From Alphaproteobacteria bacterium (lineage in GTDB: Bacteria; Pseudomonadota; Alphaproteobacteria; Rs-D84): a stretch of DNA of 64,000 nucleotides. This document shows, in pieces, positions 3,441 through 59,857 of this stretch. The position numbers were made by a program, and so were the translations under genes. Where the stretch lies: positions 89,687 through 153,686 of the forward strand of contig WRCC01000002.1 of assembly GCA_009784235.1 (NCBI GenBank), in the 5' to 3' direction. Positions within the stretch are counted from its first letter, which is position 1; every line of letters begins with the position of its first letter. The notes beneath the pieces were generated by a model. It was not told where the DNA came from and did no database searches. It was given only the letters and a program-made list of their open reading frames with translations.

Positions 3441-3445
3441 AATAA

Positions 3446-6137: not shown

Positions 6138-6199
6138 CAATTTGGGATGAAAGATGAATGTTTCATCTTTCGCCCTTTTATTTTTTTACGGGTGAAATT

Positions 6200-7957: not shown

Positions 7958-8492
7958 ATCAGAAATCATAAATCAGAAATTAGTTTTAATGTCATGTTGT
8001 GCGCCATGCAGCGCCGGTGCGATTGAGCAATTAAAAGGGCAGGGTGCAGATTTTTGCATCTTGTTTTACAACCCCAATATTTTCCCCGATACCGAATATC
8101 AAAAACGCCTTGCGGAACAAATAAAATTATGCGAATTGCTGGGCGTAAAATATCATGTCGGGGATTACAATCATGACGAATGGTTAAATTGCGTGCGCAG
8201 CATGGAAAATGAACCAGAACGGGGGTTGCGTTGCAGCGAATGTTTCAAAATGCGAATCAAATGGGGCGCGGATTGGGCACGTGCAAATGGATATGATGCA
8301 ATTGCGACCGTATTCGGCGTGTCGAAACATAAAGACCAAGCGCAAGTTGATGCCGCGGCACTTGCCGCTATTTGCGATTTAGAATATATCCCAATCAATA
8401 ACCAACCACCGCTACCCGCCACCAGTCACCAGAAGTTCTATCGCCAAAATTATTGCGGCTGTGAATACTCGATGAAAAAAAACGTGGGATAA
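7941..8492 (+). CDS. queH: Epoxyqueuosine reductase QueH (DUF208)
   Basis: LVLMSCCAPCSAG N-terminal motif. YRQNYCGCEYS at the C-terminus. Start uncertain: 7941 overlaps metG, or 7989. Confidence 0.65.
   Translation: MLKNHKSEIINQKLVLMSCCAPCSAGAIEQLKGQGADFCILFYNPNIFPDTEYQKRLAEQIKLCELLGVKYHVGDYNHDEWLNCVRSMENEPERGLRCSECFKMRIKWGADWARANGYDAIATVFGVSKHKDQAQVDAAALAAICDLEYIPINNQPPLPATSHQKFYRQNYCGCEYSMKKNVG
7949..7983. repeat. Heptamer tandem array H1 (AAATCAK x5) at the metG-queH junction
   Basis: aaatcat aaatcag aaatcat aaatcag aaattag. Contains the metG TAA stop at 7955-7957. Lies within the putative 5' end of the next ORF. Confidence 0.85.
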
Positions 8493-14442: not shown

Positions 14443-15777
14443 ATGAAAAAGACAATAATATTATCACTTGCCGTTTGTTTGTTGCCGGCTTTTGCGGCGC
14501 ACGCCAAAAAAAATGACTGCAACACGCGTAAAAATCCGCCATCCGGCGAAGTTACGTTGCAGCAAGTCATCGAACTGGGCCTGTGCCGAAATCCGAATAC
14601 TGCGGCGGCTTATCTGTCTGCGGAATCTGCGCGTCTGTCCAAAAACGCCGCCTATGCGCCGTATTTACCATCTGTAAATGCGTCGGTTGATGGAACAAAA
14701 CGATTACGCAACAAAGAGTGGTCCGATTGGCAATCTGGCGCGTCTTTGTCTGCATCATGGTTATTGTTTGATTTTGGAAAACGTCTGGCTGATTTAAACG
14801 CGATGGCGGCCATGTGGCGTGCGACCGGATTTGATTACAGTAATACGGTGCAAAATTTCGTGTATGAAATGGTTGCGGCTTATTATGGAATGCTAGGCGC
14901 AGATGCAGAAGTTCGCGTTGCAGAATATCTGGTCGATGTTGCGCGTGGCGCCAGGGATACAGCATCGAAAAAACACAGTGCCGGTTCGGTCGCGCGGGCG
15001 GACGTGTTGCGGGCGGACACAACGCTGGCATTACGTGAATTGGAATTACAGCGTGCAAATGGAAATCGCGAAATTGCAAAGGGTCGCTTGCTGTATTTAT
15101 TGTCATTTACCCAAGACCAAGAATTAAAAATTGCCGATATGCCGGCGCAATTCGGGTCACAAAATGAATCCAAGGCAATCGAAGATTTAATCGAACGCGC
15201 GCGCCGGCAACGCCCGGATTTATTATCCGCGGGCGAAAGCAAAAATGCTGCGTGGCATCGGCGAAATTCTGCGTTCTTGCGCAATTTGCCGTCTATTTCC
15301 GCATCCGGCACATTATATTACGATTTCAATAATAATTATGACGATTTTGGCGCCGGACCAAATGACCGCATGGGTGCGTCGATTGGTTTGCGTGCATCAA
15401 TGCCGATATTTGCCGGATTCGCGAATGCTTATAATTTACGTGCATCCCAAGCAAATTATGAACGCAGCGATGAACAAATGCGCGCGCGCGATGATAATGT
15501 TCAGATGGACGTCTGGACTGCATTTCAAAATTACCAAACTGCACAGAAAGTATTGGTTCAATCCGAAGCATTGCTGAAATCCGCCACTGAATCAGAACGT
15601 GTTGTTGCTGGGATGTACCGCGTTGGACGTGCGACCATGTTAGATTGGCAAACCCAGCAAGCAGATTTGGCATCTGCCCAGCGTCAAAATATTACGGCAA
15701 AATATGATTTGTTTGTACGGCGTGCGGCATTGGCATTGGCCGCCGGCGAATTGACCGAAGCATTAGAGAGTGAATAA
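14443..15777 (+). CDS. TolC-family outer membrane efflux protein
   Basis: Signal peptide. Two OEP-repeat halves. LQQVIELGLCRNPNTAAAYLSAESAR... pattern. Confidence 0.75.
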   Translation: MKKTIILSLAVCLLPAFAAHAKKNDCNTRKNPPSGEVTLQQVIELGLCRNPNTAAAYLSAESARLSKNAAYAPYLPSVNASVDGTKRLRNKEWSDWQSGASLSASWLLFDFGKRLADLNAMAAMWRATGFDYSNTVQNFVYEMVAAYYGMLGADAEVRVAEYLVDVARGARDTASKKHSAGSVARADVLRADTTLALRELELQRANGNREIAKGRLLYLLSFTQDQELKIADMPAQFGSQNESKAIEDLIERARRQRPDLLSAGESKNAAWHRRNSAFLRNLPSISASGTLYYDFNNNYDDFGAGPNDRMGASIGLRASMPIFAGFANAYNLRASQANYERSDEQMRARDDNVQMDVWTAFQNYQTAQKVLVQSEALLKSATESERVVAGMYRVGRATMLDWQTQQADLASAQRQNITAKYDLFVRRAALALAAGELTEALESE

Positions 15778-17104: not shown

Positions 17105-17824
17105 TTAGATTGCCTTTACCACCCGACAAAATACAATTCCATAAACTGCTTTCGCGCCGGATTTTTTCAGCGTGCGACGCAATTCTGAAAAAGTCGCGCC
17201 GGTTGTCATAACATCATCAACCAATAAAATCGTTTTGCCGCGGATGTTGCCCGGTCGCGAAACTGTAAATACACCGCGAATGTTGTCGACGCGCGCACGA
17301 TAATTTTTATGTCCCATATCGGGTCGATGTTTTCGGCGGACAGATGCAGTATCAATCGGCGCATGCAAATGCCGCGCAATTGGTCGGGCCAGCAATGCTG
17401 CTTGGTTATATCCGCGTTTAAATAATCGGCGCCAAGACAATGGCACTGGCATAATTACGTCAATTTCTGTATCCAATTCGCGAAGTGATGCAATCATCGC
17501 ACGCGACATCAAATCACGATATTTAAGTGCAGACGCGTGTTTAAACGGCAGCATAACATTTTTCGATGCATCATCATAAATGCATGCCGCCCGCATCCAA
17601 TCCAATTCATTCTTGTCTGCGGCGCATATCGGGCACATCGGCCGCGACCCCAAATCCAAATTTGCTGGAAACGGATATCCGCAGATACAGCATTTCGGGT
17701 CAGAAATCCAATCAAAATTCGCCCAACACGATGCACACAGCATGCCATTTGTCGATACTGATGCGCTGCACACTGGACATGCGGGCGGAAATATAAAATC
17801 TAAGATTTTGGAAAATACTACCAA
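17105..17824 (-). CDS. comF: ComF-family phosphoribosyltransferase-like protein
   Basis: N-terminal Cys4 zinc ribbon (CPVCSAS...CASCW...CCICGYPF). C-terminal PRTase motif ILLVDDVMTTGATF. Confidence 0.7.
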   Translation of the reverse strand: MVVFSKILDFIFPPACPVCSASVSTNGMLCASCWANFDWISDPKCCICGYPFPANLDLGSRPMCPICAADKNELDWMRAACIYDDASKNVMLPFKHASALKYRDLMSRAMIASLRELDTEIDVIMPVPLSWRRLFKRGYNQAALLARPIARHLHAPIDTASVRRKHRPDMGHKNYRARVDNIRGVFTVSRPGNIRGKTILLVDDVMTTGATFSELRRTLKKSGAKAVYGIVFCRVVKAI

Positions 17825-19260
17825 CTCATACTGCGATAAGTTTTGCTGGAAATCGTATCGCCGAATATATCGCGTTGGGCATCAACCAATGTTTGATGCA
17901 AATCGCTGGAAATCACGCGCAAGACAAACGAATCATCGGCGCGGTCGGACAGTACCGGGATTATGCGACTGTCTGAAACGCCTGTATCGCGCAAGACTTG
18001 TTCAATGATGGCCAGGCGGCGTGCAGCCAATTTTCGTCCGTCATAACTGCGCGTGGCGCGTTCGGGAATGGATACTTGGATTGCACGTTTTGGATTTGCA
18101 ACAACAATCCCGGCATATTCGGAAAGCAGGTTGAAATTATCACGCGACAATGCCGAATCGTTTCCGCGGAATCCAATTTTTATTTCCAGTGGTCGTATGC
18201 CACCCGCTTCGGACAAATCGCGACGTGAATCAAATCCAGCCATTTGGATACTTAAATCGCTGGCCACATCAAATGGGTCATCGATGCGATACGTTGATAA
18301 ATGTTTGTTTTCAGAAATATAAGTTTTCTGGAATGCGCGTTTCAGCTGCATCGGCGACATTTGTGTCAACGGAACGTCTTCGCTGTGCGCATTGCGCGCG
18401 ACGCGCGTATCGGCGGCGCGAACAGCAACTGGTTCGTCGAAATAGTCGTCCGCGGGCACAACAACGCGGCGTACAAATACATCATCGTTGTTTGTTGCGC
18501 GTGCTTGGGGTTGCTGCGTTGCAACGCGTTGCGTGGGAACAAACCGATTTTCAATTGTGGATGCTTGGCGAACTGCGACACGTGGCGTTGGTTCTTCGAA
18601 TTCAATCACGCGCGCAGGCATCGGTTGTGCAACGCGTTCTGGGACAGGCGCAGGTGCGGGCGCAGCAGCGCGCAGCGGCACAGATGCAATTCCAGCGCCA
18701 CGGCTACCCGCGAATAATTCAGCATCATTGTTGCGACGTGCATTTTGCTGCATCCGGACGATTTGTGTATCCAGCGATTCTTCGGGCAATATAAAGTCAT
18801 CGCGCAACATTGCGAATTCATGTGATTCTGGCATGCGAAGCGGCGTGGGTGCGGCAACATTTGATGCGCGTGCGATTGTTGGTATCGCCGGTTCACTGGA
18901 CCGGGCCCAAATATTTCCATTTGGTCGGTTGGGCATCAAGATATCGCCGATCGCGGCCGGACGTGCGGCAACCTTTGGTGCCGAAGCAGCACGTTGTTCA
19001 GAAACAGGGGTTGGTTTCGCAATGGCAATCGGTTGCGCGGGTGCGGTTGCAACAGGTGCTTCGCCAAACAGCGCACGTGCGGAAACGGCATTTCCACTGT
19101 TCACAACTGGCAGACGGGCGTTCGCAAAAGCGCCGCCGAAACACGCGGAAATCAGCGCAAATATCGATATAGCGCGGGATGTATTACGCAAATTGACCCT
19201 TCCTTTGCCATAATGATAGAACAAATGGCAGAAGGCGGGCAAGGGAAAAGTGATGGTCAA
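17818..19260 (-). CDS. Pro/Ala-rich envelope protein with degenerate OmpA-like C-terminal domain
   Basis: Signal-like segment AISIFALISACFGGAFANA. Long low-complexity P/A/V/R-rich middle. C-terminal LEIKIGFRGNDSALSRDNFNLLSEYAGIV...RLAIIEQVL resembles a peptidoglycan-binding OmpA/MotB domain. Markedly GC-rich relative to the surroundings. Confidence 0.35.
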   Translation of the reverse strand: MTITFPLPAFCHLFYHYGKGRVNLRNTSRAISIFALISACFGGAFANARLPVVNSGNAVSARALFGEAPVATAPAQPIAIAKPTPVSEQRAASAPKVAARPAAIGDILMPNRPNGNIWARSSEPAIPTIARASNVAAPTPLRMPESHEFAMLRDDFILPEESLDTQIVRMQQNARRNNDAELFAGSRGAGIASVPLRAAAPAPAPVPERVAQPMPARVIEFEEPTPRVAVRQASTIENRFVPTQRVATQQPQARATNNDDVFVRRVVVPADDYFDEPVAVRAADTRVARNAHSEDVPLTQMSPMQLKRAFQKTYISENKHLSTYRIDDPFDVASDLSIQMAGFDSRRDLSEAGGIRPLEIKIGFRGNDSALSRDNFNLLSEYAGIVVANPKRAIQVSIPERATRSYDGRKLAARRLAIIEQVLRDTGVSDSRIIPVLSDRADDSFVLRVISSDLHQTLVDAQRDIFGDTISSKTYRSMSW

Positions 19261-22026: not shown

Positions 22027-22070
22027 AGTTGTCATTGCTTCGCGTTCGCTCGCAATGACAACTCTTTTTA
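22027..22070. repeat. Palindromic element family P-D (short copy), also a dnaQ terminator
   Basis: AGTTGTCATTGCTTCGCGTTCGCTCGCAATGACAACT followed by a T run. Shares the TGTCATTGC...GCAATGACA arms with 40243..40393 and 48353..48445. Confidence 0.7.
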
Positions 22071-34117: not shown

Positions 34118-34465
34118 GTGAGAAACACGATAAAACAACATAAAGACTTCCTGATACCGGACGATGCGCCGCGCTTTGTCACGGATTTTTTTATCGTAAA
34201 ATCGCGCCCGACAAAATGGCCGAATGACGCACGATATGGTTTGACGGCGACAAAAAGAACATTCAAATTGGCGCATGACCGCAATCGTGCAAAGCGTCTG
34301 GTTCGTGCATGGCTGCGCGAATGCGAATCTTTGATGTCGCCGGAAATGGATTATGTTTTTATTATGCGTGCACCGATTCTGGTCGCGAAAAAACCCGATG
34401 GTATCGCGCAAATTACGCGCGCACTGAAAAGGCTAGCCATTATTGGTGCGCCGAACCCGGCGTAA
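34118..34465 (+). CDS. rnpA: RNase P protein component
   Basis: KRTFKLAHDRNRAKRLVRAWLRE core motif. GTG start at 34118. Not preceded by rpmH. The 3' end overlaps the mnmG 3' end convergently by ~33 bp. Confidence 0.75.
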   Translation: MRNTIKQHKDFLIPDDAPRFVTDFFIVKSRPTKWPNDARYGLTATKRTFKLAHDRNRAKRLVRAWLRECESLMSPEMDYVFIMRAPILVAKKPDGIAQITRALKRLAIIGAPNPA

Positions 34466-36280
34466 AATATTTATAATGCCCGCGGGCGTTATGCCTGGAA
34501 TACGTGATAATGCGGCGATTGTTTCCGGACGCGCGGCCGATAATTTTTCTTTCAGTTCATTGGTCAATCCGGACATTGCAGCATAATCAAAACCCATCGG
34601 AATTTTAATATCTTTATCGCGGTTATATCGTTCAATTTCACGTTGCGCCCGCGCAATATATCCAGCGTAAAATCTATCATTTTGATTTATGATTTCGGCC
34701 TTTTCAGCGATATTTTTTTCATAATGTTCGCCTGTAATCAATCCGGCTGCAACCGCCATTGGTCCCAGGCGCGTGATTGCATTATCCGCGCGCAGGCTCA
34801 ATCGGTATTCCGCGCGGGATGTGAACATTCGATAAGGTTCATCTACGCCCAGCGTCGTAATATCATCGATTAGTACACCGATATATGAATTGGTTCGGTC
34901 GATTTGTAGGGGTGCGCACCCACCCATTGAAATCGCAGATTTCAATGGGACCCGGGATTCGCGCCCCAGGGCGCAAGTATGCGCCCCTACAAAAGCCGCG
35001 GCGTTCGCACCCGCGACGATACCTTGGGCTGCGGCTTCTTCGTACCCCGATGTACCATTAATTTGCCCAGCGAAAAATAATCCCGGAATGTCTTTGGATT
35101 CCAATGTTGACTTTAACACACGCGCATCAATCGCATCGTATTCGATTGCATATCCATATCGTTCGATACGGGCGTTTTCCAGGCTTGGAACACTGCGAAT
35201 AAATTTATCTTGGACTGCCGCGGACATACTGGTCGATAAACCATTTGGATAAATTAATTTGCCATTTGCTGTCTCTGGCTCCAAAAATATTTGGTGTGAA
35301 CTGTGTTCTGGGAATCGCATAACTTTGTCTTCCAAGGATGGGCAATACCGCGGCCCGGTACCAACAATTTCACCGTTATACATCGGCGCGTCGGTAATAG
35401 TATCGCGAATAATTTGGTGCGTTTCAGATGTAGTGCGGGTGATATAGCAATTGGTCGGTCCAAAGTTTGGGTAAACCACCCCGCCCTTTGGGCATCCCTC
35501 CAAAGGGGGGGAACTAAACCACGGATGATTCGTATCCCCTGGCTGTGCCTCGCACACCGAAAAGTCAATACTGTCCGCATAAATACGCGCGGGTGTTCCG
35601 GTTTTCAGACGTAATAATTTGAATCCGGCGCGTTCAAGCGTCGCGGAAATATTTTTATCGGCCGTCTGATATGTGCCGTCGTCTTGCAATCGGCCAGATT
35701 CGATTTTTTCGCATCCGCGATGGACCAAACCCCGCAAAAAAGTCCCGGTCGTAATAACAATTGCCGTCGCACGATATTTTCCGTTTATGATTTTGTTTTC
35801 GATATCCAAAGTTTCGACGGATTCATAAATTATTTCGGGATAGACTATATCTCCCCCTCCTTGAGGGGGGCCGTCTGCGAAGCAGATCGGGGGGAGCTCC
35901 CCCTCGTCGCCCTTTGGGCGACACTCCCCCTCAAGGAGGGGGAGATATAGTCCGAGCAGATTTTTCACTGCATCCCGATACTTATCCCGATCGATTTGTG
36001 CGCGTAATGCCTGGGTCGCGGGGCCGTGCGAAGCATTTAAAACACGGAAATGAATACCGGCCATATCGGCGGCACGCGGCATTATTCCGCCCAAGGCGCC
36101 CAATTCCGCAACCAATTGCGATTTTCCAGGCCCACCAATCGATGGATTGCAAGACAGCGCGCCCAAATCATCCGGCGATTTGGTCAAAAGCAGGGTGGCC
36201 GCACCCATACGTGCTGCTGCCGCGGCTGCTTCGACCCCGGCATGTCCGCCGCCAATAACAATTACATCAAATTCTTTCAT
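34433..36280 (-). CDS. mnmG: tRNA uridine-5-carboxymethylaminomethyl synthesis enzyme MnmG (GidA)
   Basis: MKEFDVIVIGGGHAGVEAAAAAARMG FAD motif. GPRYCPSLEDKVMRF. Carries three in-frame palindromic-element insertions (P-C, P-A partial, P-B). Confidence 0.9.
   Translation of the reverse strand: MKEFDVIVIGGGHAGVEAAAAAARMGAATLLLTKSPDDLGALSCNPSIGGPGKSQLVAELGALGGIMPRAADMAGIHFRVLNASHGPATQALRAQIDRDKYRDAVKNLLGLYLPLLEGECRPKGDEGELPPICFADGPPQGGGDIVYPEIIYESVETLDIENKIINGKYRATAIVITTGTFLRGLVHRGCEKIESGRLQDDGTYQTADKNISATLERAGFKLLRLKTGTPARIYADSIDFSVCEAQPGDTNHPWFSSPPLEGCPKGGVVYPNFGPTNCYITRTTSETHQIIRDTITDAPMYNGEIVGTGPRYCPSLEDKVMRFPEHSSHQIFLEPETANGKLIYPNGLSTSMSAAVQDKFIRSVPSLENARIERYGYAIEYDAIDARVLKSTLESKDIPGLFFAGQINGTSGYEEAAAQGIVAGANAAAFVGAHTCALGRESRVPLKSAISMGGCAPLQIDRTNSYIGVLIDDITTLGVDEPYRMFTSRAEYRLSLRADNAITRLGPMAVAAGLITGEHYEKNIAEKAEIINQNDRFYAGYIARAQREIERYNRDKDIKIPMGFDYAAMSGLTNELKEKLSAARPETIAALSRIPGITPAGIINILRRVRRTNNG
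34925..34990. repeat. P-C palindromic element (variant) inserted in-frame in mnmG
   Basis: CCCATTGAAATCGCAGATTTCAATGGG + GCGCCCCAGGGCGCAAGTATGCGCCCCTAC. Encodes VGAHTCALGRESRVPLKSAISMGGCAP, compared with VGAHSCAPGREYAPLR in metG. Confidence 0.75.
35471..35514. repeat. P-A palindromic element (partial) inserted in-frame in mnmG
   Basis: GTAAACCACCCCGCCCTTTGGGCATCCCTCCAAAGGGGGGGAAC. Encodes SSPPLEGCPKGGVVY in the FS...CYIT loop. Confidence 0.75.
35846..35950. repeat. P-B palindromic element (105 bp) inserted in-frame in mnmG
   Basis: TATATCTCCCCCTCCTTGAGGGGG...CGTCGCCCTTTGGGCGAC...CCCCCTCAAGGAGGGGGAGATATA. Encodes ~35 extra residues (LPLLEGECRPKGDEGELPPICFADGPPQGGGDI). Confidence 0.8.
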
Positions 36281-39400: not shown

Positions 39401-39515
39401 CAAAGTACGCATCATGGCGGACGCCTTGATTACCGATATGCACCGCGGCACGGCGGATGAATTCCACACAGAAATCGAAGGTCATAAATTTGGAATAAAG
39501 ATTACGAAAGTATGA
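36444..39515 (+). CDS. ileS: Isoleucyl-tRNA synthetase (type 2, eukaryote-like)
   Basis: PFTFYDGPPFGNGLPHWGHLG HIGH region. KMSKS as KFSKSVGNY. 1023 aa. GACAGTA heptamer array at 38444..38464 in frame. Confidence 0.9.
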   Translation: MKYPETKPKANFPEMEHQILKFWRDHDIFHKSLDATANGAPFTFYDGPPFGNGLPHWGHLGVSAVKDMVHRYQTMRGRHVERELGWDCHGLPAENSVEKAQNRKSKDIVESDGMAAFCEMCRVDVQTYVKEWERFIERMGRWVDIGDDLGYRTMDKNYMESMLWTIKELRNKGLLYKDYRVNPFDWVNGTVLSNSEASSDYREVIDDAITVWFELMDGRRILAWTTTPWTLPGNSALAVNPKLTYAVMRDSDGAEYIIAESRLGNYEKQLANAERVGTVMGADLVGLKYKPLFDYYNDAKLHNIIAGGFVSDDSGTGIVHIAPAFGEDDFWALKDNDPEFPVIVNVDNYGNFDATVRDFSGENIFAANPKIIANLKERGHLVKKEQYKHAYPYGDRSKEKLIYRATESWYINVPKIKDKLLINNELVTWTSAGERFRAWIENARPWSISRNRFWGVPLPIWARGDEYKIFGSIAELQEFFGVEIHDLHRPTMDALTKDGWTRIPDVLDCWVESGSMPWASLHYPFDPSSHSDFDAELPKNFPADYIIEGQDQTRGWFYSLMVLATALFDKPAFITVSANGMVVDEHKKKFSKSVGNYVNPEQQIEQFGADAIRLFILGSNFMKAEPVPMDKEGKVFGEPTKNILVPLWNAYHFFTLYANAGAVTAQETVDSRQSENVLDKYILAELNDLTGVVRGALDEYKPDAALRGMTSFLEILNNWYIRRSRERFWNEEQSAFDTLHFVLVKFTKLLAPFAPFVSDHIFRNLTDPENKKMDTSVHLEKFPENESHAFDSKESFILDTMRYIQQIVSVGKQLREKHALRNRLPLNNISIYGTSINLGDYALDIIKGELNVKNAENKTTGLENVADSFVYLITPKIGARLGAGLKEIMTASKQPGFDPVAHGLLPDEYEMRLTVKPGITGAALPDNTAVVVLDTNVTPELLATGLANDALRFIQDTRKAMDLDVSDRITLTVSGDMELLTALDTHKVRIMADALITDMHRGTADEFHTEIEGHKFGIKITKV
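38444..38464. repeat. Heptamer array H3 (GACAGTA x3) in-frame in ileS
   Basis: gacagta gacagta gacagtc. Encodes ETVDSRQS. Confidence 0.8.
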
Positions 39516-40240
39516 AGTTAACACCAAATATTTACTTCACCAAAGTTCCGCCGGCGCTGGATATGTCTATCCGGTCGGAATTGTATTATACCAACGAATT
39601 TACCTTCGCGGTGGCGGTGATTTTGTCGGCGCAAGCCACCGATAAAAAAGTCAACGAAGTCACGCCGGCGTTATTCGAAATTGCCGACACACCGGAAAAA
39701 ATGTTTGCGCTGGGCATCGACGGCCTACGCGAACATATCAAAGTAATTTCGTTTTTTAATAACAAAGCGAAAAATATTATTGGGTCGAGCAAGATGCTTG
39801 TCTCCCCCTCCTTGAGGGGGAGTGTCGCCCAAAGGGCGACGAGGGGGAGCTCCCCCCAGTCGGCTATGCCGACAGCCCCCCTCAAAAAGGGGGGCACAGG
39901 AGAATGGTTCTTCCCTACCAAATACCACAACCGCGATGAATTGTTGAAACTGCCGGGCATTGGCCAAAAGACTGCAAATGTTATTATGAATGTTTTATGG
40001 GGTGCGCCGCTGATTGGCGTTGATACTCATGTTTATCGTAACGCGCATCGATATGGGTGGGTTGCGGAATCCGATAATACGCCGGAAAAAGTCGAAGTGA
40101 AATTATTACAAATTATTCCAAAGAAATATCACGGAATTGTGAATCACGTTATGGTCTTGCACGGGCGGTATATTTGCAAAGCGCTGCGTCCGTTGTGTGA
40201 CCAATGTCCCGTTGCGAAATATTGCCCTGTCCGGAAGTAA
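39512..40240 (+). CDS. nth: Endonuclease III (Nth) with in-frame P-B insertion
   Basis: HhH-GPD motifs LPGIGQKTANVIMNV. Fe-S cluster C-x6-C-x2-C-x5-C (CKALRPLCDQCPVAKYC). ~32 aa insertion before the HhH. Confidence 0.85.
   Translation: MKLTPNIYFTKVPPALDMSIRSELYYTNEFTFAVAVILSAQATDKKVNEVTPALFEIADTPEKMFALGIDGLREHIKVISFFNNKAKNIIGSSKMLVSPSLRGSVAQRATRGSSPQSAMPTAPLKKGGTGEWFFPTKYHNRDELLKLPGIGQKTANVIMNVLWGAPLIGVDTHVYRNAHRYGWVAESDNTPEKVEVKLLQIIPKKYHGIVNHVMVLHGRYICKALRPLCDQCPVAKYCPVRK
39801..39896. repeat. P-B palindromic element (96 bp) inserted in-frame in nth
   Basis: TCTCCCCCTCCTTGAGGGGGAGTGTCGCCCAAAGGGCGACGAGGGGGAGCTCCCC... The first 57 bp are identical to the reverse complement of the mnmG copy. 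Confidence 0.8.
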
Positions 40241-40242
40241 AA

Positions 40243-40393
40243 CTGTCATTGCGAGGAACATAGTGACGAAGCAATCCAATAAATAATATACTTGTTCATT
40301 ATAATGGACATCACATCTATGTTTTAAAGTTGTCTGCTATAGTAGACAACTTTTTAAATTACTGGATTGCTTCGCATGCGCTCGCAATGACAG
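40243..40393. mobile_element. MITE-like element (family P-D)
   Basis: ~35 bp terminal inverted repeats CTGTCATTGCGAGGAACATAGTGACGAAGCAATCCA / TGGATTGCTTCGCATGCGCTCGCAATGACAG flank an AT-rich 85 bp core. The core contains palindrome AAGTTGTCTGCTATAGTAGACAACTT. No coding capacity. Confidence 0.6.
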
Positions 40394-40396
40394 CTA

Positions 40397-41626
40397 TTAT
40401 TCATATCTCAGCGAATCAATCGGATTCAACCGCGCGGCTTTCAGTGCCGGAAACACACCCGATGCAATACCAACGACCACGGCGACGATTACGGATAGTA
40501 TTACCGCATATATACTTATCGGTGCGGTATAATTCAATAACATTGGCACGAATATTTTTGATAATACAATGCCCAGTACCATGCCGAACATACTGCCCAT
40601 AAATGAAATCAAAACCGATTCGGACAAGAATTGAACAATTATGTGTTTTTCTTTGGCGCCGATGGCTTTCCTGATTCCGATTTCGCGTGTGCGTTCTGCG
40701 ACCGACACCAGCATCATATTCATAATCCCAATTGACCCAACCAACAGCGATACTGACGCAATCGACACCAACAACATCCGCATAAATCCGGCGATGGTGT
40801 TCATTGTTTCCATAACCTGGCGCATGTCCATAATCTGAAAATCATCTGGTTCATCATCACGCAATCTGTGACGTTCGCGCAGTATCGTCGTAATCTGTTC
40901 AGTTACCAAATGATTGTCCGCGTCCGGAAATAATCGCAGCATAATCATTTGGACCGCGTCCGGAAAACGTCCACCCCATATACGTTTGGTCAGCGTGGTC
41001 AGCGGGATAATAAGCATATCATCTTGGGAACCCATCATAGAATCGCCGCGTTCGCGCAGCATGCCAATAATAACAAACGGTACGTTGTTAACACGTACGG
41101 TTTGTCCGACTGGATTTTCCGGCAAATCAAGTTCGGCGGCAGTCTTTGGCCCGATTACAGCAAACGTTGATGCATTGCGAAGCGCGCTTTGGTCGAAAAA
41201 AGTACCGTATTCCATTTCAACATTTTGCACTGTTGCCCAATCTGGATGTGTTCCGATAACCTGGGTTGTCCAGTTGCGGTTACCGAACACGGCCTGGGTT
41301 GAAATTTGACGCACTGGTGCGACCGCGTTAACATCAGGCAAACGGCCCAGCACGGCCGCAGATTGCACGGTAAGGGTTTGACGCATGCCGGTGCGAATGC
41401 CACCGGTTTGCGCCGCGCCTGCGCGAACGATAATTGTATTAGTGCCCAGCGAAGAAAACTGGTCATCGATTTGTTTCTGAACCGTTTCGCCAAGTGTCAC
41501 CATGACCACAACGGCCATAACACCAATAATAATGCCCAGAATTGTTAATATGGAACGAACTTTGTTGCCGGAAATCGACAACCATGATTCTTTGAGTATA
41601 TCGTTGAATGTCATTGCTCTCTCCAT
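40397..41626 (-). CDS. ABC transporter permease (MacB/FtsX family, standalone permease)
   Basis: N-terminal TM. Large periplasmic domain. Three C-terminal TMs (FtsX). The start codon lies inside an H1 heptamer array. Confidence 0.75.
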   Translation of the reverse strand: MERAMTFNDILKESWLSISGNKVRSILTILGIIIGVMAVVVMVTLGETVQKQIDDQFSSLGTNTIIVRAGAAQTGGIRTGMRQTLTVQSAAVLGRLPDVNAVAPVRQISTQAVFGNRNWTTQVIGTHPDWATVQNVEMEYGTFFDQSALRNASTFAVIGPKTAAELDLPENPVGQTVRVNNVPFVIIGMLRERGDSMMGSQDDMLIIPLTTLTKRIWGGRFPDAVQMIMLRLFPDADNHLVTEQITTILRERHRLRDDEPDDFQIMDMRQVMETMNTIAGFMRMLLVSIASVSLLVGSIGIMNMMLVSVAERTREIGIRKAIGAKEKHIIVQFLSESVLISFMGSMFGMVLGIVLSKIFVPMLLNYTAPISIYAVILSVIVAVVVGIASGVFPALKAARLNPIDSLRYE

Positions 41627-41708
41627 TTATGATTTCTGATTTATGATTTATGGTTGCATAGGCTGATACAGCGTCAAACCAAATCATAAATCAGAAATCA
41701 GAAATCTT
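41625..41708. repeat. Inverted pair of H1 heptamer arrays at a same-strand gene junction
   Basis: atttatg atttctg atttatg atttatg (41625-41652), 27 bp near-palindromic spacer, then aaatcat aaatcag aaatcag aaatctt (41681-41708). Contains the permease ATG and the thioesterase stop. Confidence 0.85.
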
Positions 41709-47390: not shown

Positions 47391-47465
47391 TGCTCGCCCT
47401 TTGGGCTGCGCGTATCCTCGTATTTATTCGAACTGCGCTTTGCTTGTTCTCATATACTCGGATTC
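47390..47465. repeat. Dispersed ~80 bp repeat R-F, copy 2
   Basis: Shares ...GCTCG...CTGCGCGTATCCTC...TTCGAA...CGCT.TGCT.GTTCT.CATA.CTCGGATTC with 1168..1256. Confidence 0.7.
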
Positions 47466-48352: not shown

Positions 48353-48445
48353 ACTATTCACTGGATTGCTTCGCGTACGCTCGCAATGACAAAAATAGTG
48401 TTGTCATTGCGAGGAGTGAAACGACGAAGCAATCCAGTGAATAGT
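48353..48445. repeat. P-D palindromic element (arms abutted)
   Basis: ACTATTCACTGGATTGCTTCGCGTACGCTCGCAATGACA...TGTCATTGCGAGGAGTGAAACGACGAAGCAATCCAGTGAATAGT. Same arms as the MITE-like element at 40243..40393 but with no core. Confidence 0.7.
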
Positions 48446-48472
48446 AAAAAACCGCCGATTGGCGGTTTTTAT
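48446..48472. terminator. Bidirectional terminator
   Basis: AAAAAACCGCCGATTGGCGGTTTTT. Confidence 0.7.
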
Positions 48473-53279: not shown

Positions 53280-55382
53280 TTAAAATATTCCACCAACAAC
53301 CGCGTTATCAATTGGCATACCATCGGCATCAATGATTCCGGTGCGAACGGGTTCGTTCGGGCGCTGGCCGCTTTTGAATGCTTCCATAATAATTGTGCCG
53401 TCTGGGTCTTGGGATGCGGCGACGCCGCTCGCACGATTAACACGTATTAAATCAATTCCATCCGGCACGGAAAACGGCCGATTTGCTTCGCCTGCCAATG
53501 CCGCCGTCATAAAGTCACCAAATACGCGTGCGGCCATATATGAACCTGCGCCGCCGCCCATTGGTTTTGGTGTGTCGTATCCCATCCAGACACCAGCGAC
53601 CAAGTCTTTGGAAAATCCGACGAACCATACGTCTTTGACTTCATTTGTTGTGCCTGTTTTACCGGCGATTGTTTGGCCCGGGACGCGTGCTTGTCGGCCG
53701 GTTCCCATTTCCACCGCGCCTTGTAATATCGATACGATTTGATACAAGGACTGTGGGTCGGACAGCGGTTCGCCTGCTTCGCGTCGCGCTGGTGGATTCA
53801 AGGTTTCTGACCAATCAATATTCGAATTTCGAATTTCGAATTTCGAATTTCGGTTATCGATAACACGTCCATGGCGGTCCTGGACATAGTCAACCAGTTT
53901 CGGTCGATTGGTATGCCCGCCATTAACAAACGCAGCAAAGCCCAGCGTCAGGCGCGACAAAGTCGTTTCGCCAGAGCCAAGTGCCAATGATAAATTCATA
54001 TGCCGCATATCTTCATCATATACGCCAAACCGCTGCGCGGAACGAATTGCATTGCGTACACCGATGGATTCAACCAATCGCACAGTCGGCACGTTGCGTG
54101 ATGTTTCCAAAGAATATCGCAGCGGGATAAGTCCCATAAATTTCCGGTCGTAATTTTCCGGTTTCCACAGCGTGTTGTCTTCACGCCATCCGACAATCGG
54201 CGCATCCAACAGCAATGTTTGCGGCGTATATTTATTTGTTTCCAGCGCGGCCAGATATACAAACGGTTTGATGGTTGAACCAACCTGGCGATTTGCTTGC
54301 GTTGCGCGGTTAAACGAACTTTCTGCAAAAGAATATCCACCGGACATGGCCAATACGCGCCCGGTGTGTGGATTCATTACAATTATCGCGCCTTGCAACC
54401 GTTCCGTACGGCCGCGGTTATACGCATCCAGCGCGGTTTTAAGCGCATTCGCCGCTGCACGTTGATATTCCGGAACGATAGTGGTTTTTATGTATAACCC
54501 TTCGTTATATAATTTTTCACGGCCCAATGTATGCAGTAATTCGCGACGAACTTCTTCGGCGAAATATTGAAAATCGTCTGTCATCTGCGCCATAAATCCG
54601 CTGTTGATGTTTAATTCTTCGGCTTGGGCCATCAGCATTTCATCGCGCGAAATAAATCCTTCTTCCATCATGCGGCGCAGCACGTAATCGCGGCGGAATA
54701 CCGCGCGCGAACGGTCATTTGGTGCTTTTGGCAATGATGCCAGGAATGCAGCTTCGGACAGTGTCAATTCACCGACGGGCTTGTTAAAATACATCAAAGA
54801 CGCCGAACCAACGCCGTACGAACGTGCGCCCAAGAATATCTGGTTCAGATACAGTGTCATTATATGTTGTTTTGAAAAAGAGCGTTCCAGGCGCAGCGCC
54901 AGGATGGCTTCCTTTATCTTGCGTGATAATTTGCGTTCAGACGTTAAAAAGAAATTCTTTGCAACTTGCTGTGTAATCGTGGATGCACCGGTAAATCGTG
55001 CGCCCAAACCCAATGCATGCCGTGCATTATTCAATGTCGCGCGCGTAATGCCGAATATATCAATGCCTGGATGACGCCAGAAGTTTTTATCTTCGGCTGC
55101 GATAAATGCATTAATCAGCATTGGTGGCATATCTTCGAAATCGATAAATACGCGACGTTCTTCGGCATATTCAATCAATAATGAACCATCCGCCGCATAC
55201 AGGCGCGTTGCAACCGGCGGCGCGTATGTCGCCAATTGCCGGTAATCCGGCAAATCATTGCCGTATCGCATAACCAATAATGCAGTCGCGGCAATACCGA
55301 TAACAACCGCCCAAAACAGGCCCAGCATTATCCATTTGGCAAATTTGCGTAATTTTTGAAAAAAGGAAGTTGATGATTTCAC
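53280..55382 (-). CDS. mrcA: Penicillin-binding protein 1A (bifunctional transglycosylase/transpeptidase)
   Basis: GT51 motifs (RFTGASTITQQVAKNFFL; RKIKEAIL). Transpeptidase STIKPF and KTGTTN. Probable GTG start at 55382. H2 heptamer array at 53821..53855 in frame. Confidence 0.85.
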   Translation of the reverse strand: MKSSTSFFQKLRKFAKWIMLGLFWAVVIGIAATALLVMRYGNDLPDYRQLATYAPPVATRLYAADGSLLIEYAEERRVFIDFEDMPPMLINAFIAAEDKNFWRHPGIDIFGITRATLNNARHALGLGARFTGASTITQQVAKNFFLTSERKLSRKIKEAILALRLERSFSKQHIMTLYLNQIFLGARSYGVGSASLMYFNKPVGELTLSEAAFLASLPKAPNDRSRAVFRRDYVLRRMMEEGFISRDEMLMAQAEELNINSGFMAQMTDDFQYFAEEVRRELLHTLGREKLYNEGLYIKTTIVPEYQRAAANALKTALDAYNRGRTERLQGAIIVMNPHTGRVLAMSGGYSFAESSFNRATQANRQVGSTIKPFVYLAALETNKYTPQTLLLDAPIVGWREDNTLWKPENYDRKFMGLIPLRYSLETSRNVPTVRLVESIGVRNAIRSAQRFGVYDEDMRHMNLSLALGSGETTLSRLTLGFAAFVNGGHTNRPKLVDYVQDRHGRVIDNRNSKFEIRNSNIDWSETLNPPARREAGEPLSDPQSLYQIVSILQGAVEMGTGRQARVPGQTIAGKTGTTNEVKDVWFVGFSKDLVAGVWMGYDTPKPMGGGAGSYMAARVFGDFMTAALAGEANRPFSVPDGIDLIRVNRASGVAASQDPDGTIIMEAFKSGQRPNEPVRTGIIDADGMPIDNAVVGGIF
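53821..53855. repeat. Heptamer array H2 (TTCGAAT x5, reverse complement of the UDG copy) in-frame in mrcA
   Basis: ttcgaat ttcgaat ttcgaat ttcgaat ttcggtt. Encodes NRNSKFEIRNSNID. Confidence 0.85.
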
Positions 55383-55422: not shown

Positions 55423-57729
55423 TTATGACGTTGGTGTCGTGTGGCATGTTCCGTTGTCTGTACGCGCGGTATGTCCGGGCATACATCTGATACCAATCAT
55501 TGGACATCCGATGTTGCCGACTGGCGGGGTCCCGTCAACCACAGCGCCGGGCATCGGTGATGTGCATGTTGGGTCCAGATTGGCATTCGGCGGCGGCAGA
55601 ACACAACGGCCGTTCAAGAATCCATATCCAATATTGCACAGACATTTTTCATTCACAAAAACGCGATTCAATAATGCGGCGGCCAGCGGCGGTGTGGTCA
55701 CGTTTGGATTGGTTAATATTGAACCAGCCGATGGTACGGGCGTCCAATTGGCCGTATTAATATATTCCGAATTCGGGTCGGTGCACAGCATGGATTGATA
55801 GAACAAGCTGGATATGTTTTCGATACATGTTTCTTGCTGGGCCGTTGATGATGATATTACGTTGTTTGTGGTCGTGGTTGGGCAAGATGCGTTATCCGCA
55901 GAAAACACGGCATAAGCACACGTCAATGCCACATTACGGCACGCGCCGCGCATAACGTTATGTATGCTGGTGACAGACGCCGCGGATGACCATGCGTTGA
56001 CCTGGCTGACCTGTTGGCTGTAACAATGCGCGATGTCTTGCATACAAGTCGTTGCGAACCTGGAAATTGCGCGTTCTTGGCCGGCCTTTATATTAACCAT
56101 CGCGCGTTGAATATAATTAACAACGATATCGTTATGCGGATTGTATTTACCGCCAGCAGAGTATGAAAATTGGCGGCATTTATCCAATACCACGCGGCAC
56201 ATGCCGGATGTTGGTGATTCGCCCATGCCGATTTTGCTTTGCAAGAATCGCACGATTTCAAATCCATTGGTTGCCGTGGATAATGATATCCCAGTTGGGC
56301 AAGTGCCAGCCGCATTATTACCGGCAATTATTTCGCCGACCTTGCTGTTATCAAAGCACATCATTGTGCGGCGGATGTTATTTATATTTTGGCCCAATAC
56401 AATTTCGCCATTTTCGTCGATAAAGCGCTTCGATGGGTCCAGGCATTTGATATAATCATTTCCGCAAACCATATCGTCGGACATACATTGTTCCAGCGCG
56501 CCCAGGCAACCCTTGGCATCAAATTGATTCTGATTTTGCAGAACGGCCAGACGGGCTTTCTGTAACATTTGCGTCGCTGCGCGAACGTTGTTGCGCAGCG
56601 TGTCGTTCATACGTCCCAATCCTTGTTCAAACGCGATACAATCTTTATCAATTTCCATGTCATATCGTGCGGTGATTGCTTGGGCATTGACGCCTTGGGC
56701 GGTACAGGTATTCAGAACGTTACGGCAACGTGCTTTGGCCGCATTATGTAATTGTGTTCCACGCATATTGGAAAAAGAACCGCCGCCGCCAAACATTTCC
56801 AGCGAAAACATTTCTTCCAGACTGTCCGTATTTGTGAAATCCAAATCCAGATCCATCAGCGCGTTACCGGTGTTGGCTTCGTTCACAAATGTTTCCGGGC
56901 TGCGAATTAATTTTTCAATGGATTCCAGCATCTGGCGATTTTCGGTCGTATCCGTTTGGCCGGCCAGTGCCAATTCGGCTTCGGTTGCCGTCATAATCGC
57001 GCGGATTTCATCGGCGGACAATCCGACATAGCGAATGCGTTGGGCAACATCATTTAATTGGTTATTCGCATCGCGCACGGCACGTTCCGAACGTGTGTAA
57101 GTGTTAAGGCGCGCCGAACATGAACAGCGTTTCTGGTTCGCATCAATAACATTGCAGAATTGGTCCATGCAATCCATGTATTGCTGGCGGCATGCCTCGG
57201 TCAGGGCGTTCAGCGCGCCCAGTCGTTCGGTTGTTTCCGCAACAGATGCAGATGTTGGGCGTGCAGCGGCGCTGCGCGCGACGCGTTCGGTATTATTTAT
57301 ATTTGAACCGGTCATTGCACCGGCGGTGCCAGGAATGGTTGCGCGGCCGCCAACTTCGGCAACAGATGGGCGAAGCGTGACACCAGCGCGGCGCACGGCG
57401 GCGGATTCATTCGCGATACCTTTTTCATTTTCATTGAATGCCGCTCGCATCTCTTCGCGTTCCATTGCAGTTTGTTGCGCGCCAACGGTTGCGCGCGATA
57501 CGCCCGCACGTGCAGGCATGGGTTCAGATGCACCGCGTACAATTGATGAAGATGCCGCGCCGCGTTGGATAATTGCGGGCTGGACCGCGGCCGCTGTTTG
57601 TGCCGCCGCAACAGATGCAACCGCTGCGCGTCCGGGAACAACAGGCGCGGCTTCATCGGCGTGCAAAACCGGGGCTGATACAATCAACCCCAGTATTGTT
57701 GTTCCAATGATACGGTTCAGTGTTTTCAT
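55423..57729 (-). CDS. Cysteine-rich secreted repeat protein A (768 aa), paralogue of the upstream gene
   Basis: Signal peptide MKTLNRIIGTTILGLIVSAPVLHA. Ala-rich linker. Recurrent CRNVLNTC / CRVVLDKC / CRNVALTC motifs. Shared YMDCMDQFC...RCSC block with protein B. C-terminal EGF-like CLCNIGYGFLNGRC. Confidence 0.6.
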   Translation of the reverse strand: MKTLNRIIGTTILGLIVSAPVLHADEAAPVVPGRAAVASVAAAQTAAAVQPAIIQRGAASSSIVRGASEPMPARAGVSRATVGAQQTAMEREEMRAAFNENEKGIANESAAVRRAGVTLRPSVAEVGGRATIPGTAGAMTGSNINNTERVARSAAARPTSASVAETTERLGALNALTEACRQQYMDCMDQFCNVIDANQKRCSCSARLNTYTRSERAVRDANNQLNDVAQRIRYVGLSADEIRAIMTATEAELALAGQTDTTENRQMLESIEKLIRSPETFVNEANTGNALMDLDLDFTNTDSLEEMFSLEMFGGGGSFSNMRGTQLHNAAKARCRNVLNTCTAQGVNAQAITARYDMEIDKDCIAFEQGLGRMNDTLRNNVRAATQMLQKARLAVLQNQNQFDAKGCLGALEQCMSDDMVCGNDYIKCLDPSKRFIDENGEIVLGQNINNIRRTMMCFDNSKVGEIIAGNNAAGTCPTGISLSTATNGFEIVRFLQSKIGMGESPTSGMCRVVLDKCRQFSYSAGGKYNPHNDIVVNYIQRAMVNIKAGQERAISRFATTCMQDIAHCYSQQVSQVNAWSSAASVTSIHNVMRGACRNVALTCAYAVFSADNASCPTTTTNNVISSSTAQQETCIENISSLFYQSMLCTDPNSEYINTANWTPVPSAGSILTNPNVTTPPLAAALLNRVFVNEKCLCNIGYGFLNGRCVLPPPNANLDPTCTSPMPGAVVDGTPPVGNIGCPMIGIRCMPGHTARTDNGTCHTTPTS

Positions 57730-59768: not shown

Positions 59769-59822
59769 GAAAAATCCCTTTCCTTTGATTAATTAATTAT
59801 ATCATGAAAGGGGTATAAATCC

Positions 59823-59857
59823 AAATCAGAAATCACAAACCCAAAATCATAAATCTA
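59823..59857. repeat. Heptamer array H1 at the rluD 3' end
   Basis: aaatcag aaatcac aaaccca aaatcat aaatcta. Contains the rluD TGA stop. Confidence 0.7.

Follow-up and report, generated by a model that had tools for sequence, protein, structure and literature searches.

Palindromic repeats lying in frame in essential genes, the Rickettsia palindromic elements (RPEs), have been known since 2000, and as far as we are aware neither an enzyme partner nor an explanation of how they move has been put forward. RPEs are described as palindromic elements of ~100-150 bp, present in many copies in both coding and non-coding DNA, and in frame where they are coding (Ogata et al. 2000, 2002, summarised in PMC10969869 and PMC1166351). 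The element analysed here, P-B, was found in a 64-kb stretch of DNA (the window) and resembles RPEs in being short (96-110 nt), palindromic and hairpin-forming, in belonging to an alphaproteobacterium, and in having many copies in coding and non-coding DNA, of which the coding ones are in frame, leave a housekeeping host intact and apparently occupy a tolerant loop, in the case of P-B one predicted to be disordered. It differs in its host, an uncultured lineage of ~46% GC and not Rickettsia, and in its GC-rich make-up of five separate mini-hairpins, the middle one being an invariant palindrome. Moreover, descriptions of RPE families mention a conserved encoded peptide, whereas P-B has none because its frames vary, and a DUF559 ORF is physically embedded in a P-B-type array.

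Other known systems share part of this picture. Like MITEs of the Correia/NEMIS, ERIC, BOX and RUP types (PMC10969869), P-B is small, ORF-less and multi-copy, has terminal inverted repeats, and possesses a longer ORF-bearing relative with shared ends (at loci L018 and L019). However, this relative encodes a PD-(D/E)xK nuclease domain of ~110 aa instead of a DDE, serine or HUH transposase, no consistent target-site duplication was seen for P-B, and its internal structure, not its ends alone, is kept by covariation. REP/BIME elements and their IS200/IS605-like RAYTs offer a likeness in their arrays of GC-rich imperfect palindromes, in the compensatory upkeep of hairpins and in the small enzyme gene flanked by repeats, but REPs are extragenic and linked to an HUH tyrosine transposase, whereas P-B is intragenic in the window and its linked gene is DUF559. 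The GC clusters and double-hairpin elements of fungal and yeast mitochondria are mobile GC-rich hairpins, sometimes in frame and sometimes near endonuclease ORFs. They resemble P-B in that small, GC-rich hairpin units stand in a genome of lower GC but are organellar and of other sequences, and we know of no report linking them to DUF559. Finally, Vsr-like nucleases are an established homing-endonuclease family, and loss of endonuclease ORFs after insertion is frequent (PMC2677866; PMC3239194; bioRxiv 10.1101/2022.08.31.505936). The Vsr-like (EDxHD) homing endonucleases (for example I-Bth0305I) and free-standing phage endonuclease cassettes are comparable to the present case in that a nuclease of the Vsr/DUF559 clade sits on an invasive cassette in conserved genes, and in that the ORF frequently disappears and leaves a residual cassette behind. 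The known cases spare the host gene with the help of a group I intron, an intein, gene splitting or ribosomal bypass. Here, by contrast, ORF and hairpin flanks simply follow the frame of QueA or RuvX, and what is left as the residual cassette is a hairpin array present in many copies.

The window contains two copies of P-B at the places given in the preliminary description, which had noted that both have the same orientation relative to their host genes; that orientation is sense. The copy in mnmG (35843..35952, minus strand) consists of a 96-nt core (35850-35945) with TATA on each side and GAC/GTC flanks, and is bounded by a perfect 27-nt terminal inverted repeat, the left arm of which (35843..35869) contains the hairpin CCCCCTC-CTT-GAGGGGG and is 100% complementary to the right arm (35926..35952). 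The copy in nth (39801..39896, plus strand) measures 96 nt, or 32 codons, the length originally given for it; the 105 bp first assigned to the mnmG copy adds to a core of the same 96 nt the TATA of both sides and one base. In a repeat search of the window the two copies are reverse complements over 93 nt (35853-35945 against 39801-39893) at 90% identity, the ~57 identical bp noticed earlier being the first 57 nt, which are free of mismatches, of this longer homology. The motif CCCCCTCNNNGAGGGGG occurs four times in the window against 0.03 expected. P-B has a GC content of 65-72% compared with ~46% for the host lineage, and a GC-island scan of the window did not distinguish the elements from normal GC-rich coding stretches. 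The predicted folds of the mnmG and nth copies have energies of -91.3 kcal/mol (z -10.7) and -72.5 kcal/mol (z -6.5), and their covariance-model scores are 101 and 119 bits, respectively. A search of the window against Rfam at gathering thresholds returned four tRNAs only, with no intron family and no match for P-B, and blastn of P-B against plasmids gave no match.

According to the fold predictions, P-B is not the single long palindrome with terminal inverted repeats that it had been taken for, but an ordered row of five small GC-rich hairpins, H1 to H5, with pairing ends. In the nth copy these are located at 39802-39822 (H1), 39824-39840 (H2), 39843-39856 (H3), 39859-39873 (H4) and 39876-39894 (H5). 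H3 is a central perfect palindrome, GGGGGAGCTCCCCC, with GAGCT at its centre, and is invariant, whereas H2 and H4 are variable stems; H1 is complementary to H5 in every copy. The 12-mer CGCCCTTTGGGC is indeed found again, at 35482 and 47395, as had been pointed out, and corresponds to the H2 stem-loop of the two window copies only. Since H2 differs in every other member of the family, the 12-mer is not a family signature, and it is a weak argument for the common ancestry with P-A and the repeat R-F at which it had been taken to hint, given that it represents a variable hairpin module. When 11 full copies at 10 distinct loci were aligned, 98.6% of the cells of predicted pairs were kept, compared with 91.0% in shuffles (0/500) and 54-64% with slid partners. 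Double changes occur at seven pairs (26 cells) and are compensatory at four of the five H2 pairs, and a few G-U pairs are found on the sense strand. The translation frame of P-B is not the same in mnmG as in nth, varies among the other copies as well, and switches inside a copy where H2 or H4 differs in length. Because the reading frames differ in this way, it is the DNA structure and not a peptide that is conserved; a conserved protein module was rejected as a candidate on the same ground, the copies being read in different frames. Most copies end in 5'-TG...CA-3' without direct repeats, TATA borders the mnmG copy alone, at either end, and neither a clear target-site duplication around P-B copies nor an empty site similar enough to map an insertion exactly was found.

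Both host ORFs are uninterrupted despite the insertions and match their respective protein models, in agreement with the in-frame insertion claimed at the outset. The mnmG gene (34433..36280, minus strand) encodes 615 aa from the MKEFDV start and is matched by TIGR00136 in three stretches (E 1.7e-188). Besides P-B it carries two further short GC-rich inserts, and its alignment with the MnmG of a relative (L008) displays three lineage-specific inserts. P-B adds about 33 residues to MnmG, between positions equivalent to E. coli MnmG residues 132 and 144. The nth gene, coding for endonuclease III (39512..40240, plus strand; 242 aa), is matched by TIGR01083 in two stretches (E 1.1e-56), and the helix-hairpin-helix (LPGIGQKTANV), the VDTHV motif and the C-terminal four-cysteine cluster are all preserved. 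That the Nth insert lies directly before the helix-hairpin-helix was correctly recognised; in the alignment to the PDB structure, 42 residues stand in place of residues 99-107 of E. coli EndoIII. An AlphaFold2 model of Nth with its insert gives a pLDDT below 50 at residues 100-130, so that the insert is predicted to be a disordered loop; the model is moderate (mean pLDDT 67, from a 20-sequence alignment) and was for this reason used for the disorder of the insert only. As four of the six frames of P-B are free of stop codons, the element can be carried in MnmG and Nth, where it is presumably translated as a disordered loop of ~32 residues. Close homologues of MnmG and of Nth are without the insert. 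The alternative of mobility or vertical inheritance, which had been posed in the preliminary description, is answered in part: by comparison with the L008 relative, whose MnmG (70% amino-acid identity) is without P-B, the mnmG insertion is lineage-specific, the nth insertion is found at the same site and with identical junctions in two relatives (L008 and L009), and related genomes have further copies, within other genes as well as between genes.

The covariance model gives 101-119 bits to each of eleven full copies, which are spread over 10 distinct loci. Diverged and half copies exist in addition, and these counts are small because the scans of sequence collections required exact patterns. 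In-frame copies are found in mnmG, nth, tatD, gatB, queA, tgt and gatA, and six of these seven host-gene insertions are in sense orientation, while intergenic copies are present at L010, L011 and L013. The relatives harboring P-B include 'Rickettsiales bacterium' MAGs, the others being metagenome contigs. The pattern TCGCCCNNNGGGCGANNAGGGGGAGCTCCCC gave no match in the genome and metagenome collections, H2 being variable and the source contigs being absent from these collections, whereas a pattern combining H3 and H5 succeeded in finding copies there. At the peptide level, HMMER searches of 1.84 billion representatives and a 12-peptide profile search for in-frame copies both returned a 78-aa ORF at L016 as the sole match, these searches being uninformative given that the query is short and of low complexity and that representatives at 50% identity hide inserts. 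P-B copies group by genome rather than by locus: the nth and mnmG copies of the window are 88% identical, as are the nth copy of L008 and the L013 copy from the same MAG, but the nth copies of the window and of L008 share only 75% identity. At L011, two half-elements stop exactly at GAGCT, reading ...GAGGGGGAGCT followed by TAA.

DUF559 'endonuclease domain-containing proteins' form a very large and common bacterial family that has yet to be given a function. The family is Vsr-like and belongs to the PD-(D/E)xK superfamily, and we know of no nuclease or transposition activity for it. Vsr and DUF559 have been put in one clade (PMC3424549). In three related contigs the P-B array flanks, or is split by, a ~410-bp ORF encoding the ~110-aa DUF559 domain (PF04480), in frame in queA or ruvX; the domain is carried by these ORF-bearing relatives and not by the window copies, and no DUF559 gene was found by tblastn in the 64-kb window. 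At L019, the sequence up to and including H1, H2 and GAGGGGGAGCT agrees in 39 of 40 nt with the left half of the P-B copy at L016. Next to it lies a 413-nt module with AGCT at its borders that encodes DUF559 (E 7.3e-28), after which come a C-run, H4, H5 and in-frame queA. The junctions of the module fall at the GAGCT centre of H3 (GAGGGGGAGCT joined to TTGCC... on one side and ...AGCT joined to CC on the other), and the same contig also holds an ORF-less P-B in tgt. L018 has an L019-like architecture around DUF559 (E 3.9e-33), in frame in ruvX and with 23-nt terminal inverted repeats (91%), together with two ORF-less copies in gatA, one of which has ATTTTT..TATCGAG strings matching the 3' end of the ORF module. 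At L015, an entire P-B is directly followed by DUF559 (E 1.6e-30) within a single 533-aa QueA ORF. Host, insert and host read as one continuous ORF at the DUF559 loci in QueA and RuvX. No Hint domain is present in these ORFs, for which reason an intein reading of the inserts was discarded.

More distant DUF559 genes have comparable surroundings, one being bracketed by 52-nt inverted repeats at 90% identity (L020) and another accompanied by three complete five-hairpin arrays (L021), while two others (L022, L023) have hairpins on their flanks with only weak left-right complementarity, some of which could be ordinary terminators. GC-hairpin or inverted-repeat flanks were seen at all seven DUF559 loci inspected, of which two (P0243, P0255) had been picked for hairpin-like peptides and L022 and L023 without that bias. 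The ORF lies inside H3 at L018 and L019, past a complete array at L015 and between complete arrays at L021, and given this varying placement the ORF cassette and the array may be separable elements. A literature search found no published link between DUF559 and palindromic repeats. As for other enzymes, Pfam revealed no transposase, integrase or RAYT (Y1) among the 61 ORFs of the window, and the gene tables of related P-B loci list no transposase or Y1 transposase.

Taken together, we consider it probable, though by no means certain, that P-B is an RPE-like, non-coding selfish repeat and, lacking an ORF itself, the partner of a cassette that encodes a DUF559 endonuclease, the nuclease being the presumed agent of its mobilization. 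P-B would be the ORF-less form, or the companion, of a small element encoding a DUF559 nuclease; the nuclease, made from a gene elsewhere in the genome, would break DNA in arrays or target sites or close to them, and repair or recombination would then copy arrays, with or without the ORF, to new sites, copies being homogenized within a genome. Loss of the ORF by recombination of flanking arrays, or by deletion across a G-run/C-run stem, would leave a solo array. In genes, the survivors would be those insertions that are in frame, free of stops and placed in tolerant surface loops. Site-specific cleavage is hinted at only by the nth insertion, which has one and the same position in three lineages, and by breakpoints that recur at GAGCT. 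As to the direction of the relationship, the ORF may have been deleted from the array or may have invaded it. More tentatively, and as a possibility that we would not yet favor, DUF559 proteins may be the nucleases of so far unrecognized, very small selfish elements with GC-rich multi-hairpin ends that insert in frame in essential genes without the help of an intron or intein and decay to P-B-like arrays.

It could also be that P-B is an ordinary RPE-like MITE moved by some transposase. The DUF559 cassettes would then be homing-type parasites in their own right, which land at the GAGCT of the multi-copy central palindrome H3 or near arrays and are irrelevant to P-B mobility. The varying position of the ORF module relative to the array (inside H3, after a complete array or between arrays) would fit such an independence, and the AGCT on both sides of the module at L019 is explained as well by a 4-bp insertion duplication as by a microhomology deletion. 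Termini of the form 5'-TG...CA-3', as in most P-B copies, are found in many transposons, and the swap of one endonuclease for another at one site is documented in phages. Nevertheless, a transposase was found neither in the window nor at the P-B-bearing loci, and target-site duplications were not observed. In addition, the more distant DUF559 genes, which belong to unrelated genomes, each have hairpin inverted repeats of another kind, which is awkward if a single MITE provides the landing pads; and one ORF-less copy at L018 seems to keep the 3' end of the ORF module. On balance we regard this explanation as unlikely, if worth serious consideration.

Less probable still is that P-B copies are immobile, each being a former complete DUF559 element that lost its ORF in situ, with gene conversion accounting for their likeness within a genome. 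The direct arrays flanking the ORF at L021 or the G-run/C-run stems of L018 to L020 would favor precise ORF loss, ORF-end sequence is kept in one mini copy, the grouping of copies by genome is what concerted evolution predicts, and the sense orientation of six of seven host-gene insertions would be expected of descendants of ORF-bearing elements expressed by read-through. However, the GGGGGAGCTCCCCC centre and the 96-nt core length recur at many loci and in many genomes, so that the same precise deletion would have been needed repeatedly, and the mnmG copy, with its perfect 27-nt ends, is 88-90% identical to the older nth copy, for which recent copying of an ORF-less unit is the simpler explanation.

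We see very little chance that the insert is a host-selected module, either a useful peptide loop of MnmG and Nth or an mRNA structure controlling translation or stability. The great stability of the hairpins, the retention of the nth insertion in three lineages and the few G-U pairs on the sense strand could be read in its favor, but copies in different frames share no peptide, unrelated genes and intergenic regions harbor the element too, it is missing from close homologues of MnmG and of Nth, Rfam gives no match and the insert is predicted to be disordered. That the inserts are an assembly or chimera artefact of repeated sequence, a concern raised at the outset for the two copies and natural for a metagenome assembly in which repeats can cause joins, has a negligible probability because the exact Nth protein is found on five contigs from five samples (two assemblers or sources) and the exact MnmG on three contigs, while the flanks of each insert belong to one gene, in frame, and the gene order mnmG-ileS-nth is common to the window and L008.

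Should the reading of DUF559 as the nuclease of a selfish element be true, a first candidate for the enzyme that mobilizes RPE-type, protein-invading repeats would be available, and a role would be suggested for the DUF559 family. Arrays of the P-B family have been seen standing alone, divided by a small nuclease ORF, and placed beside or around that ORF, and these three states make the hypothesis concrete and biochemically testable. Two aspects bear on protein evolution by insertion: compensatory change can maintain a hairpin DNA structure inside translated sequence, and certain protein loops, for example the loop before the helix-hairpin-helix of endonuclease III, are recurrent landing sites of different element families. 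Concerning P-A, another element of the window (3441-3567), an architectural kinship with P-B is plausible since the P-B covariance model matches it at 28 bits (E 1.6e-4).

P-B consists of five small GC hairpins in a row, namely H1 (CTCCCCCTC-CTT-GAGGGGGAG), H2 (GTCGCCC-AAA-GGGCGAC), H3 (GGGGGAGCTCCCCC, a perfect palindrome), H4 (GTCGGC-TAT-GCCGAC) and H5 (CCCCCCTC-AAAAA-GGGGGG). Since H1 and H5 are mutually complementary, two folds are possible, either five hairpins or a long outer stem around three hairpins. The sequences of both window copies read as in the preliminary description; as to length, the core common to both is 96 nt, and the 105 bp ascribed to the mnmG copy includes TATA on each side and one extra base. 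A repeat search of the whole window paired the copies as 93-nt arms (35853-35945 and 39801-39893) with 90% complementarity, and showed that the mnmG copy terminates in perfect 27-nt inverted repeats (35843-35869 and 35926-35952). In pairwise alignment the copies are identical over the first 57 nt, and all mismatches fall in hairpin four and in the final loop. For the end motif CCCCCTCNNNGAGGGGG, four occurrences were counted in the window (0.03 expected), and the predicted folds of the two copies reach -91.3 and -72.5 kcal/mol (z -10.7 and -6.5 against dinucleotide shuffles). These repeat, motif and fold features are far beyond chance. Only these two copies were found in the window by blastn, and P-B has a GC content of 65-72% versus about 46% for the window.

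Each copy lies in sense orientation relative to its own host gene. The mnmG ORF (34433-36280, minus strand) matches TIGR00136 in three stretches (E 1.7e-188), and the nth ORF for endonuclease III (39512-40240, plus strand) matches TIGR01083 in two (E 1.1e-56). The host reading frame of P-B differs between them (LPLLEGECRPKGDEGELPP... in MnmG, SPSLRGSVAQRATRGSSPQ... in Nth), and four of the six P-B frames are without a stop codon. In alignments with the E. coli proteins, MnmG has 44 residues where the E. coli protein has the 11 that separate residues 132 and 144, and Nth residues 99-140 stand in place of EndoIII residues 99-107, directly N-terminal of the helix-hairpin-helix (HhH), where the insert had been placed. 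The translated Nth retains the HhH, VDTHV and the C-terminal four-cysteine cluster; in an AlphaFold2 model of moderate quality (mean pLDDT 67), residues 100-130 have pLDDT below 50 and are flanked by well-predicted helices. Owing to the insert, the TIGR01083 score of Nth is 191.6 bits, short of the curated 211.7, and the equivalog name could therefore be missed in automatic annotation; at NCBI the protein is named 'MAG: endonuclease III [Alphaproteobacteria bacterium]'. Two more short GC-rich inserts are present in mnmG, at 35471-35515 (SSPPLEGCPKGGVVY; 87% identity to the right arm, 3522-3566, of the repeat P-A) and at 34957-34990 (CALGRESRVPLKSAISMGGCAPLQ; matching a palindrome family at 7493-7526).

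Outside the window, two GTDB MAGs and four contigs from metagenomes yielded copies in a search with an H3 plus H5 pattern, and a covariance model built from ten copies then found more. Full copies, including both window copies, score 101-119 bits. They occur in nth of the outside loci L008 and L009, with a junction identical to that in window nth; in frame and in sense in TatD (L014), GatB (L017), QueA (L015) and TGT (L019), hosts confirmed by Pfam; and in intergenic DNA or a small unassigned ORF in L011, L013 and L016. A lower-scoring copy of this last location type, with an extra insert within H2, is in L010 (76.5 bits), and GatA of L018 carries two copies of a diverged subfamily, in frame and antisense. 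Among the 11 best copies, standard pairs fill 98.6% of pair cells versus 91.0% with shuffled partners (none of 500 shuffles was as high as the real pairing) and 54-64% with slid partners. In the same copies, two-sided changes affect seven pairs (26 cells); H2 has compensatory changes in four of five pairs and is 100% paired, and H1, H3 and H5 are almost invariant, in agreement with RNAalifold. All these figures are biased towards structure because the alignment was fitted to the covariance model, but the H2 and H4 stems are legible directly in the sequences, without the model. H2 is frequently GCGAAGC, with the complementary GCTTCGC in H4; as a DNA mini-hairpin, d(GCGAAGC) has unusual stability. 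Variation in stem length makes the frame switch inside some copies. The conserved property of P-B is nucleic-acid structure and not a peptide.

The relatives gave a partial answer on mobility versus vertical inheritance. The gene cluster mnmG-ileS-nth is common to the window and L008, although mnmG is inverted relative to ileS, and the L008 MnmG (70% identity) has none of the three GC-rich inserts of the window MnmG, so the mnmG copy is lineage-specific. In L008 and L009 (about 73% protein identity) the nth copy has precisely the position that it has in the window, which could reflect vertical inheritance or site-specific re-insertion. P-B likeness follows the genome rather than the locus: window nth and mnmG copies are 88% identical, as are the L008 nth copy and that of L013 from the same MAG, and the window and L008 nth copies share only 75% identity. 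This pattern indicates copying or gene conversion inside genomes. In an alignment of Nth homologues from related uncultured alphaproteobacteria, the loop before the HhH holds inserts of 0 to about 47 residues. These belong to two or more unrelated sequence types, one of which, 'PPVEGCPQGGVVY', matches another element family of the window; the loop is a recurrent insertion site, or hot spot.

ORF-bearing relatives of P-B encode a DUF559 (PF04480) domain. In L015, a complete P-B is directly followed by this domain (E 1.6e-30) within the same 533-aa QueA ORF. Its nearest homologues (66-75% identity) likewise lie inside host genes, QueA at a different site (L019) and RuvX (L018), and the domain is read in frame in all three (L015 33-1634, L018 3001-3741, L019 108-755). 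No intein domains were found in these ORFs; the QueA and RuvX proteins would bear an insertion of about 190 residues with a complete DUF559 nuclease domain. The L019 contig begins within the element (...TTGAGGGGGAG TGTCACGCAAAGCGTGAC GAGGGGGAGCT), where 39 of 40 nt agree with the left half of the P-B copy in L016. The ORF follows on a 413-nt module with AGCT at both bounds, then AGCTCC..CCCCCCC, the H4 hairpin and CTCCCCCTCAAGAAGGGGGAG, after which queA resumes in frame; the tgt copy on this contig is an additional, ORF-less one. L018 has the same layout in its own sequence variant (two hairpins, G-run, 412-nt ORF module, C-run, two hairpins), with 23-nt terminal inverted repeats (91%) and a 12-nt G-run/C-run pair. 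One ORF-less L018 gatA copy retains ATTTTT..TATCGAG in its H3 loop, a modest and suggestive match to the 3' end of the ORF module. In L011, two half-elements both end exactly at GAGGGGGAGCT|. Of the more distant DUF559 genes, the one in L020 has inverted repeats of 52 nt (90%), and in L021 the ORF is surrounded by three complete five-hairpin arrays, with an H4 almost identical to that of the window nth copy. The L021 site (1325-2090) lies between gatA and gatB in a 68% GC alphaproteobacterial contig; the array and the first ~50 nt of the ORF are tandemly duplicated upstream of the intact ORF, and the third array is downstream. At L022 and L023, in AT-rich genomes, CTCCTCCCCC-TTGA-GGGGGGAGGA and a G-run lie upstream, a C-run and hairpin downstream, and solo copies nearby. 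Hairpin-type flanks were present at seven of seven DUF559 loci inspected, two of which had been picked for hairpin-like peptides already visible in their proteins.

Our preferred reading makes P-B either an ORF-less version of a DUF559 nuclease cassette or a companion to one. A putative DUF559 nuclease encoded elsewhere in the genome would make breaks, and repair or recombination would copy and homogenise the arrays; flanking arrays may recombine, or a deletion may span the G-run/C-run stem, and either event would leave a solo array. Within coding DNA, selection would spare only in-frame, stop-free insertions in tolerant loops. Since the ORF and array are arranged in three different configurations, the array may instead have been invaded secondarily by the DUF559 ORF. 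The cassette reading has parallels: the PD-(D/E)xK classification places DUF559 together with Vsr and I-Bth0305I, an intron-encoded homing endonuclease (PMC3424549), and free-standing Vsr-like homing endonucleases are known, with ORFs commonly lost after insertion (PMC2677866, PMC3239194). That DUF559 represents a class of hairpin-bounded selfish elements decaying into inserts like Rickettsia palindromic elements (RPEs) is a wider proposal that we hold only tentatively, as rather less probable than its opposite. Our literature search found no paper linking DUF559 to palindromic repeats.

In behaviour P-B matches RPEs, being short, palindromic, multi-copy and in frame in housekeeping genes, but it lacks the conserved encoded peptide described for them, is GC-rich and modular and belongs to another lineage. 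It resembles MITEs, but lacks a consistent target-site duplication, and the ORF partnered with it is no known transposase; REP/RAYT systems, but is intragenic and no RAYT was found; and homing-endonuclease cassettes, but without an intron or intein.

The inserts are not an assembly artefact, since five contigs, each from a different sample (three ENA, two JGI; one contig of 498 kb), encode the identical Nth protein and three contigs the identical 615-aa MnmG. The nearest relatives, isolates Gx481_bin12 and Mcx344_bin51, are MAGs that carry the label 'Rickettsiales bacterium', and the sample and isolate names resemble those of termite-gut projects. The gene content of the window is that of ordinary housekeeping (rsmG, parAB, infC, metG, fabDG, accC, recF, uvrD-like, lptFG/D, pnp, rnpA, ileS, leuS-like, gyrA and others). 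Domain searches of its ORFs, and tblastn for DUF559, found no transposase, integrase, RAYT or DUF559 gene; four large ORFs of 435-768 aa (55423-57729, 57729-59768, 61841-63148, 17818-19260) had no Pfam match at E 1e-6.

Other repeats accompany P-B. P-A (3441-3567), with perfect 24-nt inverted ends (AAGTTCCCCTCCTTTGGAGGGGTG), is intergenic between paralogous small lipoprotein-like ORFs (3096-3440 and 3622-4014); the P-B covariance model matches it at 28 bits (E 1.6e-4), and its minus-strand translation (PPLEGWPQAGVVY...NHP...HPSKGG) resembles Nth-loop inserts of other species (P0011, P0038). A third palindromic family (GTAGGGGCGCATAGTTGCGCCC / GGGCGCGAATACGCGCCCCTAC) is in frame in a metG-like ORF (7485-7546 in 6158-7957), with a further intergenic copy adjoining a tRNA gene (5964-6015). 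Intergenic palindromes of tandem 6-7-mers are a repeat kind distinct from P-B, in a style common to the window (TTCGAAA, CTACTGT and AAATCAT/AAATCAG; 4730-4764 / 53821-53860, 3108-3141 / 60566-60696, and 7949-7988 / 41625-41706 / 59816-59855) and L008 (GGTAATC; 15670-15740 and 19014-19091). The family TGTCATTGCGAGG...CGAAGCAATCC occurs at 22034-22069, 40244-40401 and 48365-48446, including a 44-nt inverted pair right 3' of nth (40267-40374), and similar sequences lie beside the P-B copies in L010 and L011. R-F is a 60-nt direct repeat of 80% identity (1188-1247 and 47406-47465); its copy 2 shares a 12-mer with P-B because the small hairpin GCCCTTTGGGC precedes that copy.
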